A stretch of 64,000 bases of DNA from Phycisphaerales bacterium (GCA_029260375.1 JAJDDI010000009.1:34275-98274), one strand, 5' to 3'; positions 33,683 to 36,677 are shown, counted from the first letter of the stretch. A program made the numbers and translations. The notes: generated from the sequence alone by a model not told the origin.

Positions 33683-34651
33683 ATGAGCACCCACCCCGGC
33701 CGTCGTCTCCGTGAGCTGATGGACAAGGGCGTCGTCGCGGCGCCGGGCGCGTTCAACGCGCTGGTCGCCCGGGCGGTTCGCCAGGCGGGCTTCGAGGCGT
33801 GCTACGTCTCGGGCGGGGCGACGAGCGTGGCCGCGGGTGTGCCGGATGTGGGCATTCTGACGCTCGAGCACTTCGCCCGCGTGGTGCGAGAAGTCTGCGA
33901 CGGCTCGGGCCTGCCCGTGATCGCCGACGCGGATACGGGGTTTGGCGAGGAGGAGATGGTACGTCGTACCGTGATCGAGTACCACCGGGCGGGCGCCGCG
34001 GGGCTGCACCTGGAGGACCAGGTCTTCCCCAAGCGCTGCGGGCACCTGGACGGCAAAAAGCTGATCCCGGTCGAGCAGTGCGTCAGCCGCCTGGAATGGG
34101 CGACCAAGGCGAGCCAAGACTGCTCGGGCGGCGAGTTCATCATCTGCGCCCGCACCGACGCCAAGGGCGTCGAGGGCTTCGACGCGGCGATCGAGCGGGC
34201 GAAGGCGTACGTCGGCGCCGGGGCGAGCATGATCTTCCCCGAGGGCCTGCACAGCGAGGACGAGTTCGCGCGGTTCGCGGAGGCGCTCAGACCGAGCCGG
34301 GAGCGCCAGCGACCCGGGGCGAAAGCCAGCGGGGCTGGAACCGCCCGGGTCGCTCGCGCTCCCGGCTCTGACAGGCGTGATTCTGGGGGCCCGTACCTGC
34401 TGGCGAACATGACGGAGTTCGGCAAGACGCCGATCATCCCGCTGAGCCGCTTCGGCGAGATGGGCTACGACCTGGTGATTTTCCCGGTCACGACGCTGCG
34501 TGTCGCGATGGGCGCCGTCTCTCGGGCGCTGGCGGAGCTGAAGCAGACCGGCTCGGTCGAGGGGTTCCTGGGCGGGATGCAGACGCGGGACGAGCTGTAC
34601 GAGCTGGTGGGATACACGCCGGGGACGGCGTGGGAGTTTCCGGCGATGTAG
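33683..34651 (+). CDS. prpB: Methylisocitrate lyase / PEP-mutase superfamily enzyme (PrpB-like) carrying an in-frame insertion
   Basis: GAFNALVARAV...FEACYVSGG...PVIADADTGFGE...HLEDQVFPKRCGHLDGK...CARTDA...LLANMTEFGKTP. Adjacent to a citrate-synthase-family gene. Confidence 0.8.
   Translation: MSTHPGRRLRELMDKGVVAAPGAFNALVARAVRQAGFEACYVSGGATSVAAGVPDVGILTLEHFARVVREVCDGSGLPVIADADTGFGEEEMVRRTVIEYHRAGAAGLHLEDQVFPKRCGHLDGKKLIPVEQCVSRLEWATKASQDCSGGEFIICARTDAKGVEGFDAAIERAKAYVGAGASMIFPEGLHSEDEFARFAEALRPSRERQRPGAKASGAGTARVARAPGSDRRDSGGPYLLANMTEFGKTPIIPLSRFGEMGYDLVIFPVTTLRVAMGAVSRALAELKQTGSVEGFLGGMQTRDELYELVGYTPGTAWEFPAM
34294..34368. repeat. 75-nt near-perfect palindrome (25-nt arms matching at 24 of 25 positions, 25-nt spacer) inside the prpB coding sequence
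   Basis: gagccgggagcgccagcgacccggg (34294-34318) against the reverse complement of cccgggtcgctcgcgctcccggctc (34344-34368). The spacer contains a ccagc-ggg-gctgg mini-hairpin. The length is exactly 25 codons and the frame is preserved. Confidence 0.9.
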
Positions 34652-34657
34652 CCAGTC

Positions 34658-35482
34658 ATGTCGAAGCTACGCAGGATAATCTTGCTACTTATTGCTGGCG
34701 CCTGTCTCAGTTGGGTGATGGCTTTGGGGATCGCGCTCTCTTGGCAGAACTTCCCCTTCGGATATTCGACACGTGTTGAACAGTTCGATGCAGAAAGCAT
34801 GCCCGCAGGGCTTCGTGTACTTCAGGGGAAGCAACTGAGACTGAAGGGCCGGTGGTATCGGCGATGGCCCGACTACTCCCAGCTCACCTATCGAGAGTCT
34901 CGGTCATTGGGATTAATGCTGCGCACATGGGGACCCGCAGTTTCGGATGCACATCTGCCATCACGCCCTCAGCCACCGCGTACAAGACTTCACTTTGGGT
35001 TGTGGTGGGCCTTCTCACTCGAGCCAGCGGAGCGCTGGGGGGCGCTTTCACGAGCTGAAGTTGGCGAGTCTATTCTCCAGACTGGCGAGCCATACCGTGG
35101 CACTGACCATGCCTTCGGGTTGCCGTTCCTCTGCTTGTCCCACGAGATCAACGAAGTGTTTGGTCCCACCCCTGTGAGCAGAACAAAGTATGCCGTCAGC
35201 GGCGGAATCACGCTCACCAAAACAACATTTCCGAATCCGCCGCTTGTGTTGCCATACTGCCCACTTTGGCGTGGCATTCTCGCAAACACGATCTTTTTTG
35301 CGACCGCGATCCCCCTGACGCGTTACCTCATTGGGATGCCGAGACGCGTCTATCGATTCAATCGCGGGCGCTGCCCCCGTTGCGCCTACGACCTCGCCCA
35401 CGACTACCGCTCCGGCTGTCCCGAATGCGGCTGGCGGCGCGAGACTGAGCCCGCGCCCGCCCAACAGCCCAAGCCCTCCTAG
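34658..35482 (+). CDS. Membrane protein with C-terminal C-x2-C...CPECG zinc ribbon; lower-GC gene between prpB and prpC
   Basis: TMs RIILLLIAGACLSWVMALGIALSW and GILANTIFFATAIPLT. RCPRCAYDLAHDYRSGCPECGW. The first ~650 nt are visibly AT-richer than the neighbours. Confidence 0.6.
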   Translation: MSKLRRIILLLIAGACLSWVMALGIALSWQNFPFGYSTRVEQFDAESMPAGLRVLQGKQLRLKGRWYRRWPDYSQLTYRESRSLGLMLRTWGPAVSDAHLPSRPQPPRTRLHFGLWWAFSLEPAERWGALSRAEVGESILQTGEPYRGTDHAFGLPFLCLSHEINEVFGPTPVSRTKYAVSGGITLTKTTFPNPPLVLPYCPLWRGILANTIFFATAIPLTRYLIGMPRRVYRFNRGRCPRCAYDLAHDYRSGCPECGWRRETEPAPAQQPKPS

Positions 35483-35510
35483 GATGCCTTCCACGCTAGA
35501 AGGAGGACCG

Positions 35511-36677
35511 ATGAGCACCAGCACCCCCACCCCCCCCACGATGGCCAAGGGCCTTGAGGGCGTCATCGCGGGCGAGACCGCGATCTGCAAGGTCGAGCAG
35601 ACCGCCCTGATCTACCGCGGGTACGAGATCGCGGACCTGGCCGCCCACGCGAGCTTCGAGGAGGTCGCGTACCTGCTGCTCAACAGCGAAAAGCCGACCA
35701 GCGACCAGCTCGCGGCGTTCAACAAACATCTCATCAGCGAGCGGGGTCTGCCCGAGGCGGTTCGTGAGTTCCTCAAGACCTCGGGCGAGCTGGTGAACGA
35801 CAAGTACGCGGTGCCGATGGACATTCTCCGCACGGCGGTGTCCATGTTGGGGCACCTGGACCCGGAGTGCCAGGACATCACGCCCGAGGCGAACCTGCGC
35901 AAATCAGTCCGGCTGCTGGCCAAGACGCCGACGATCATCGGGCACATGCAGAACGCGATCGACGGGCGGGAGTTCGTCCAGCCCGACGACGCGCTGAGCC
36001 ACGCGGCGAACCTGCTGTGGATGATGACCGGCGAGAAGCCGACCCCCGAGGCCGTCAAGGTGATGGACGTGAGCCTGGTGCTGTACGCCGAGCACGACTT
36101 CAACGCCAGCACGTTTACCAGCCGGGTGATCGCGGGCACGCTGAGCGACATGCACGGGGCGATCACGGGCGCGATCGCGGCGCTCAAGGGCCCGCTGCAC
36201 GGCGGGGCGAACGAGGCCGCGATGGAGATGCTCGCGGAGATCCGTGAGGACATCGGCCCCGAGAACGACACGGGCAAGATCCAGGCGTGGATGGACAACG
36301 CGTTCGCCACCAAGCGCAAGCTCATGGGCTTCGGGCACCGGGTGTACAAAAACGGTGACCACCGGGCGCCGATCCTGCACGCGCTTGGTCGCAAGGCCGC
36401 GGAGGCGCGGGGCGAGGAGTTTGTGAGGCTCTTCGAGCTGGGCGAGGCGGTGCAGAAGATCATGGAAGAGCAGAAGCACATCTTCCCCAACGTCGATTTC
36501 CCGTGCGGGATGACGTACTTCACGATGGGGATCCCGGTGCCGCAGTACACGCCGATCTTCGTCGCCAGCCGGATGTCCGGGTGGTGTGCGCACGTGAGCG
36601 AGCAGCACGCCAACAACCGCCTGATCCGCCCGCGGGTGGCGTACACCGGTCCCGAGCTTCGGCACTGGAACGCCTGA
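35511..36677 (+). CDS. prpC: Citrate synthase family enzyme, likely 2-methylcitrate synthase by context
   Basis: Start at ATG 35511 with GAAGGAGG upstream. GLEGVIAGETAI...YRGY...LYAEHDFNASTF...ALKGPLHGGANE...GFGHRVYK... Confidence 0.75.
   Translation: MSTSTPTPPTMAKGLEGVIAGETAICKVEQTALIYRGYEIADLAAHASFEEVAYLLLNSEKPTSDQLAAFNKHLISERGLPEAVREFLKTSGELVNDKYAVPMDILRTAVSMLGHLDPECQDITPEANLRKSVRLLAKTPTIIGHMQNAIDGREFVQPDDALSHAANLLWMMTGEKPTPEAVKVMDVSLVLYAEHDFNASTFTSRVIAGTLSDMHGAITGAIAALKGPLHGGANEAAMEMLAEIREDIGPENDTGKIQAWMDNAFATKRKLMGFGHRVYKNGDHRAPILHALGRKAAEARGEEFVRLFELGEAVQKIMEEQKHIFPNVDFPCGMTYFTMGIPVPQYTPIFVASRMSGWCAHVSEQHANNRLIRPRVAYTGPELRHWNA

Follow-up and report, generated by a model that had tools for sequence, protein, structure and literature searches.

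Rickettsia palindromic elements (RPEs) are about 100–150 bp long, AT-rich and specific to Rickettsia. Bacterial MITEs (Correia/NEMIS, Nezha, RUP) are short, non-autonomous elements with terminal inverted repeats that fold into hairpins; they are derived from DDE-transposase insertion sequences and make target-site duplications. RPEs are palindromic and lie in frame in coding genes, where they are tolerated in surface segments of the encoded proteins (PMC3733652 and general knowledge). REP sequences have also been found in frame in known proteins, both as singles and as dimers, with the dimers encoding about 20–30 residues (Di Nocera et al. 2013, PMC3733652). The hosts of these GTAG/CGTC REPs include DNA-repair and tRNA-synthetase genes, and Opitutus terrae, a member of the PVC group, is rich in REPs (PMC3733652). 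Two inverted REPs with a short spacer between them make up a REPIN, which forms one long hairpin (Bertels & Rainey 2011, as summarized in PMC3733652); according to this summary, classical REPINs go together with RAYT (class 2) genes, are built from GTAG REPs and have spacers that are conserved within a family.

Class 3 HUH-Y1 proteins are found mainly in Planctomycetes and Acidobacteria and in some Proteobacteria (Quentin et al. 2018, PMC6006769). In the available sections of that paper the class-3 genes are described as flanked by atypical hairpins with the 5' foot CnGA, which reach up to about 600 copies in Solibacter. Its Table S1 gives the class-3 REP of Planctomyces limnophilus as CACGAGCCGGAAGCGTGAGCGACGGGT, folded (((...((....))..))), and the class-3 REP of Legionella and Solibacter as CCGAGCCGCGACCGTAAGGGAGCGGA. 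These REPs flank the transposase gene and are dispersed over the genome; in-frame copies within genes or inverted doublets are not described in those sections of PMC6006769.

A near-perfect palindrome in frame within a prpB-like gene

The window (the whole 64-kb stretch of DNA that was analysed) contains one inverted repeat that surpasses all others by a wide margin, namely the palindrome at 34294-34368 (Table 1). Its arms, 34294-34318 (GAGCCGGGAGCGCCAGCGACCCGGG) and 34344-34368, are 25 nt long and complementary at all positions but one (24/25), the mismatch falling on the variable N of a GCNA loop. The arm complementarity, the 25-nt spacer with its 5-bp mini-hairpin and the preservation of the prpB reading frame by the 75 nt within ORF 33683-34651 are all as described in an initial sequence-only reading of this DNA. 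The predicted translation of the palindrome is SRERQRPGAKASGAGTARVARAPGS.

A search of the window with the arm sequence (≤3 mismatches) returned the two arms only, and two or more matches were obtained in 0/100 shuffles. No further copies of the repeat unit were present in the window with ≤3-4 mismatches, nor were other repeat families found there. Neither the rest of the window nor ~1 Mb of planctomycete loci contains a match to the spacer (34319-34343), and a plasmid collection searched with the element gave no match. RNA folding, which had been proposed in the same reading, yielded -73.3 kcal/mol for the segment 34280-34385 compared to -49.7 +/- 3.5 for shuffled sequences (z = -6.8, 0/200), with the pairing of the arms extending a few bases into the spacer, with one bulge. 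No direct repeat that would be compatible with an in-frame insertion flanks the palindrome (...CTCAGACC / element / TGACAGG...), which would be consistent with HUH/Y1 chemistry.

Table 1. Features of the prpB locus, with positions counted in the window.
Feature	Position	Strand	Basis or composition
prpB-like gene (methylisocitrate lyase, PEP mutase/isocitrate lyase superfamily), 322 aa	33683..34651	+	ORF, TIGR02317, PDB matches
Whole lineage-specific loop segment, residues 203-237, RPSRERQRPGAKASGAGTARVARAPGSDRRDSGGP	34289..34393	+	Alignments, AF2
Left repeat unit with 5' foot	34292..34318	+	CCGA-G-CCGGG-A-GC-GCCA-GC-GA-CCCGG-G
75-nt near-perfect palindrome, REPIN-like inverted doublet	34294..34368	.	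In frame, 25 codons' worth
Spacer, 25 nt, with mini-hairpin CCAGC-GGG-GCTGG at 34326-34338	34319..34343	.	
Right repeat unit	34344..34370	-	CAGA-G-CCGGG-A-GC-GCGA-GC-GA-CCCGG-G (read on minus strand)
Citrate-synthase-family gene, prpC-like, methylcitrate-cycle context	35511..36677	+	ORF 35331-36677

The palindrome lies in a loop of the PrpB barrel

The prpB equivalog profile TIGR02317 matches the encoded protein in two stretches, one on each side of the insert, with a score of 315.5 bits against a cut-off of 354.4. Such inserts break profile matches apart, and in this case the equivalog score is pushed under the cut-off, with the consequence that the enzymes receive generic names; the only public name of the close relatives of the window PrpB is 'isocitrate lyase/PEP mutase family protein'. 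PrpB structures from the PDB match with 1e-54 to 1e-66, with KRCGH, DADTGFG and NMTEFG aligned, and the catalytic motifs KRCGH, DADTGFG, EDQ and NMTEFG are conserved in the window PrpB. Judging from a dN/dS of 0.19-0.27 for the whole gene against four relatives, prpB as a whole is under purifying selection.

We compared the loop among the best 120 homologues, all of which come from MAGs of Phycisphaerales or other Planctomycetota. In most of these best 120, including three of the closest relatives (P0003, P0004 and P0007), the stretch from FAxAM to PY comprises 14 residues; the window PrpB has 41 residues there. The excess of 27 residues over the 14-residue baseline equals the 75-nt palindrome plus 2 residues, and exact deletion of 34294-34368 leaves FAEALRPDRRDSGGPY, a 16-residue loop that is near the baseline. 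An alignment to solved PrpB structures puts the extra residues at about 204-237. In the DNA alignment to the relatives both flanks match cleanly around a lineage-specific middle part. The insert has a GC content by codon position of 0.81/0.85/0.73 (GC1/GC2/GC3) and is unlike long-resident coding DNA, because its GC3 of 0.73 compares with 0.90 for the gene. The sequence-only reading had proposed an alignment of orthologues and had named an equally long, non-palindromic segment in close orthologues as the observation that would speak against an insertion. We found that close orthologues carry no such segment, and that the closest ones either lack the segment or have a different repeat at that position. 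As far as the compared sequences go, the palindrome is an insertion and not an ancient loop.

An AlphaFold2 (AF2) model of the window PrpB, built from 73 homologues and with a mean pLDDT of 86, superposes on PrpB crystal structures with a target-normalised TM-score of 0.88-0.91. Residues 203-237 are modelled as coil with a pLDDT of about 48-65, located between helix 192-202 and strand 238-242. In this predicted structure the insert occupies a disordered, permissive surface loop that connects helix 6 of the PrpB TIM barrel to strand 7, so the modelling that had been suggested as a check for a surface loop places it in low-confidence coil of an otherwise normal barrel. Helix-to-strand loops of TIM barrels are located on the face opposite the catalytic face.

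Regarding the neighboring genes, the order of prpB followed by a citrate-synthase-family gene is common to the window and the syntenic loci of relatives (the loci examined are given by L numbers). Read from Met 61, the prpC-like protein has 388 aa, and in this form it is the counterpart of the PF00285 genes located behind prpB in L001, L003, L005 and L128. Between the two genes of the window there is an ORF at 34658-35482 (+) of 274 aa with a Cys-rich C-terminal tail and 56-60% GC, compared to ~69% in the surroundings. The corresponding position is empty in L003 and L005 and is taken by a gene of 244-248 aa without Pfam match in L001, L128 and L009; the ORF appears to have been acquired separately.

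The arms belong to a hairpin-repeat family of the Planctomycetota

Both arms are copies of a repeat unit of 23-27 nt with the consensus (CnGA)G-CCGG-GA-GC-GNNA-GC-GA-CCGG, and the left unit at 34292-34318 fits the family consensus GAGCCGGGAGCGCNAGCGACC. The unit, whose motif can be written as GAGCCGGGAGCGC[N]AGCGACCGG, is composed of a foot CnGA-G, a GC stem of 4-5 bp, a GA-type internal loop, a 2-bp stem and a GNNA tetraloop, and it folds as CCGG(G)-(G)A-GC-GNNA-GC-GA-(C)CCGG. The first position of the foot is a C in only about half of the units (~53%). The unit can be read through in all six frames without a stop codon. Its stems covary between subfamilies, across 73 distinct variants, with 49 double-change cells compared to 13.6 +/- 2.9 after shuffling (0/500); the covariation score is 0.343 versus 0.118, and slid controls are far lower.

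A scan of species-representative genomes with the query GAGCCGGGAGNGCNAGCGACC yielded at least 117 loci. Nearly all of the matches listed belong to Planctomycetota (Phycisphaerae, Gemmataceae, Pirellulales, Isosphaera and Planctomycetaceae), and a few of them to Acidobacteriota or other phyla. In total we identified 33 inverted doublets and 117 single units in ~1 Mb of loci examined. The units are present as singles, as inverted doublets that span 47-104 nt and differ widely in their spacers, and, in one genome, as 31-nt tandem arrays at contig ends. These arrays consist of 2-3 copies of GAGCCGGGAGCGCGAGCGACCGGTCCAAAAC (31 nt) in L054, L085, L126, L024, L043 and L075, all from the Phycisphaerae isolate DeMMO2_9, and adjoin a shared flank at the contig ends, which suggests that they are part of a larger multi-copy element that breaks the assembly. 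The proposal that the palindrome is a REP/MITE-like palindromic repeat is thereby strengthened, in that its arms are members of a hairpin-repeat family that is present in many copies across the Planctomycetota. A literature string search with the unit sequence matched no paper.

The nearest relative genome is JAJRXR01, whose PrpB is 80% identical to that of the window. A small-word BLAST of the element against the loci of relatives gave a match at L001:13045-13129 in this genome, an 85-nt hairpin that follows directly on the stop codon of the citrate synthase gene; its terminal arms are those of the window element, its loop is not. JAJRXR01 carries at least six doublets, one each in L001 and L057 and two each in L091 and L120, all of them intergenic; the further related palindromes for which a search of relatives had been recommended are thus present. 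Because the L120 pair is the same ~84-nt element in opposite orientations, the doublets appear to be copied as whole units. The left unit of the window is identical to L116:7554-7579 (26/26), a unit that has no partner arm within the stretch examined, and the outer stem is lengthened by an extra C in the window, in L116 and in L091. At the orthologous prpB site JAJRXR01 has no doublet of the window's family. The number of unit copies is demonstrably polymorphic between relatives.

Resemblance to class-3 HUH-Y1 REPs

The window unit CCGAGCCGGGAGCGCCAGCGACCCGGG and the P. limnophilus REP are identical at 18 of 21 core positions and alike in architecture, the aligned cores being CGAGCCGGAAGCGTGAGCGAC for P. 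limnophilus and CGAGCCGGGAGCGCCAGCGAC for the window. The P. limnophilus REPs matched are those that Table S1 of PMC6006769 lists as flanking ADG69454.1. Both feet of the palindrome fit the published CnGA, with CCGA on the left (34292-34295) and CAGA on the right (34370-34367, minus strand). The architecture of the window unit, with an outer stem, an internal loop, a 2-bp inner stem and a tetraloop, also fits the weak hairpin (((..((....))..))) given in that paper, and the Legionella/Solibacter variant GAGCCGCGACCGTAAGGGAGCGG co-occurs in the loci examined. The class-3 REPs of PMC6006769 thus resemble the window unit in host taxa, CnGA foot, two-step hairpin with tetraloop and sequence, and the window's family as a whole in being dispersed in many copies. 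Unlike for the class-3 REPs described there, no class-3 gene was found near those copies of the window's family that we examined.

The class-3 transposase motif (NHVH...YVxxEQ, searched as a regular expression) was found neither in the window nor in ~970 kb of loci, and inspection of the ORFs between unit pairs revealed no transposase. A Y1_Tnp gene at L010:1298-1750 (-) (PF01797, IS200-like, 150 aa) was considered as the cognate transposase and rejected, as its Y motif YIENQREHH is that of subclass 1.2. This gene has no homologue in any other locus examined; it lies a short way downstream of the L010 prpB, in whose loop there is a 9-nt tandem repeat. On the strength of sequence and predicted fold we regard the arms as probable REP-like units of the class-3 HUH-Y1 (IS200/RAYT-related) type, and we infer the link to the transposase from this assignment.

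Intragenic copies and a recurrently filled loop

The majority of the copies are intergenic; coding-like ORFs, as recognized by their GC signature, hold 3 of the 33 doublets and about 18 of the 117 single units. In-frame units in Pfam-confirmed genes were found in GyrB, ValRS, a histidine-kinase ATPase domain, a RecQ linker, an MBL-fold protein and DUF1501. The DUF1501 copies comprise a doublet at L070:7099-7154 and a single unit at L073:997-1017, which lies in a different frame in the same linker, after a Tat-like signal and before PHFPAKAK, so that this linker, hit in two genomes, is a second repeatedly hit site. One of the three doublets, at L120:5187-5270, was discarded as an intragenic copy, since the real gene starts downstream at MSTRIEINK. 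The lengths of the intergenic doublets show no preference for multiples of 3, as expected if, of the intragenic copies, only those in frame survive. The pattern as a whole is what frequent insertion would produce if selection then removed the disruptive copies, and it parallels that of the intragenic GTAG/CGTC REPs and the RPEs (PMC3733652).

The PrpB loop itself carries different inserts in different relatives. L001 and L005 contain a hairpin CCCTCTCCCC...GGGGAGAGGG, a repeat which occurs at 12 sites in the loci examined. The loop of L009 (4029-4079) contains two in-frame direct copies of the CACGGGCGGGACGCCCGTGCCAC hairpin; this palindromic repeat is also present as intergenic inverted pairs in JAJRXR01 (L001:11690 and 11779; L116:7129 and 7165). 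In L010 the loop contains a 9-nt AAGGCAYC tandem repeat, while L002 and L007 have single hairpins that resemble the class-3-type units and are in the same frame as those of the window. The expanded loops of L128, L129, L130 and L010 have an ordinary folding energy. Regarding the two single hairpins, CCCGAGC-GCAA-GCTCGGG in L002:10281-10448 and CCCGTGC-GGAA-GCACGGG in L007:7422-7550 differ by a compensatory base pair, which amounts to two non-synonymous changes (E to V, L to H). This one sequence pair hints that pairing rather than peptide may be conserved. We read the PrpB loop as a permissive site that is sampled repeatedly.

Origin of the palindrome

We consider it likely, and are fairly confident, that the palindrome is a mobile non-coding REPIN-like doublet which was inserted in frame into a permissive loop of PrpB and is tolerated there. 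Each arm would be one copy of the small hairpin-forming REP-like unit, so that the palindrome would not have been part of the ancestral enzyme, and the two inverted units together with the 25-nt spacer would constitute a REPIN-like doublet that was inserted, or assembled in place, in the DNA encoding the helix 6-strand 7 loop. A class-3 Y1 transposase may have mobilised it in trans, in single-stranded form and without target duplication. The insert is presumably translated into a small, charged peptide rich in Gly, Ala, Ser, Pro and Arg, and the insertion would persist as a near-neutral passenger. Such an event would be survivable because the length is a multiple of three, none of the six frames contains a stop codon and the small charged peptide falls into a disordered loop; these three properties make it very probable that the enzyme stays functional. 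Against this reading stand the lack of a second unit copy in the window, the uniqueness of its spacer in the data examined, the negative search for a class-3 transposase in the window and ~970 kb of loci, and the share of only about half of the units with a C at the first foot position.

A doublet could also have arisen on the spot from a single unit or a short loop sequence already present, with the second arm generated by in-place inverted duplication through template switching or snap-back synthesis at a replication hairpin, and without any preformed doublet being inserted. The uniqueness of the window spacer would agree with this, as would the combination of the same arms with quite different spacers at different doublet loci; moreover, apparent single units occupy the same loop position and frame in the more distant PrpB lineages L002 and L007, and a different hairpin in L001 and L003 has a right arm that runs over sequence similar to the codons of the empty site. 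However, the closest relatives of the window prpB have no such unit in the loop, the L120 doublets of the nearest relative genome were evidently copied whole, and the two arms of the palindrome have different bases at the variable loop position, which is also the case between independent units. We consider such a local origin improbable. A still more doubtful possibility is that an artefact of the assembler or a chimeric read created the palindrome. The source is evidently a metagenome-assembled genome and the exact PrpB sequence is a singleton in the protein collection, but the segment is located in the middle of a contig and preserves the frame exactly, its arms are genuine copies of a repeat that related genomes also contain, down to the lineage-specific extra C of L116 and L091, and in-frame units of the family occur in other, independent assemblies as well, so that we attach next to no weight to this explanation.

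The hairpin might instead have been retained for a role at the mRNA or DNA level inside prpB, for example as a translational pause between the barrel halves, as an RNase target that sets prpB/prpC stoichiometry or as a protein-binding site. A regulatory mRNA structure had been offered as an alternative in the sequence-only reading. The predicted stability of the hairpin, the recurrence of hairpin-forming repeats at the PrpB loop in several lineages and the compensatory pair of L002 and L007 with its two non-synonymous changes speak for selection on structure. On the other hand, most homologues lack the insert, including close ones, the expanded loops of L128, L129, L130 and L010 do not depart from ordinary folding energy, and the units are mostly intergenic or located in unrelated proteins, which fits tolerated selfish DNA. 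No terminator (U-tract) or promoter was predicted at the hairpin. Rfam returned sub-threshold matches only, namely generic miRNA-precursor hairpins and DUF3800-IV (25 bits; gathering score 60.7), and assignment to a known RNA family was rejected. With neither a terminator-like tail nor an Rfam family above threshold, and with several expanded loops of ordinary folding energy, the regulatory alternative receives little support, and we judge a selected structure to be very improbable, less so only than an assembly artefact.

Comparison with described elements

As an inserted REPIN-like doublet, the window element shares with REPINs, as these are summarized in PMC3733652, the arrangement of two inverted REP-like units that form one long hairpin across a short spacer; as in REPINs, the arms of the window's family stay complementary, and the L120 pair appears to have been copied as a unit. 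In contrast to the family-conserved spacers of classical REPINs, spacers vary greatly here and that of the window is unique in the data examined. The in-frame position is also that of the intragenic GTAG/CGTC REPs, but the tag of the window unit is CnGA-G and not GTAG or CGTC (PMC3733652). The sequence-only reading held that a stem of this kind inside the gene is hard to explain by chance; this argument loses its force, as in-frame REP insertions are documented (PMC3733652). The analogy to RPEs that it drew holds for the mode of insertion, the window insert likewise being a palindrome in frame in a coding gene and in a surface segment; RPEs are longer than the window element and are set apart from it by their description, and the host of the window element is a planctomycete (Phycisphaerales-like) judging by its homologues, so that the likeness is one of insertion mode only. 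With MITEs the element has the hairpin and the inverted repeats in common, but it lacks a target-site duplication, and its arms are themselves structured REP-like units.

Implications

The analysis ties a striking intragenic palindrome to the poorly studied REP-like hairpins of class-3 HUH-Y1 type. Its unit family is widespread across the Planctomycetota and occurs in frame in housekeeping proteins such as PrpB, GyrB, ValRS and RecQ. The kind of event is already known and has precedents; most worth following are the recurrent filling of the loop and the phylum-wide spread of the units. As one enzyme loop has taken up at least three unrelated repeat families and a short tandem repeat, it offers a compact natural test of targeted versus permissive insertion. 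It is a rather unlikely idea that the helix 6-strand 7 loop of prpB and DUF1501-like linkers are recurrent targets of single-stranded DNA hairpins, with the hairpin and not the peptide being conserved after insertion. If this were true, class-3-type REP units would be a phylum-wide source of variation in protein loops and linkers and would have a role at the nucleic-acid level within genes.
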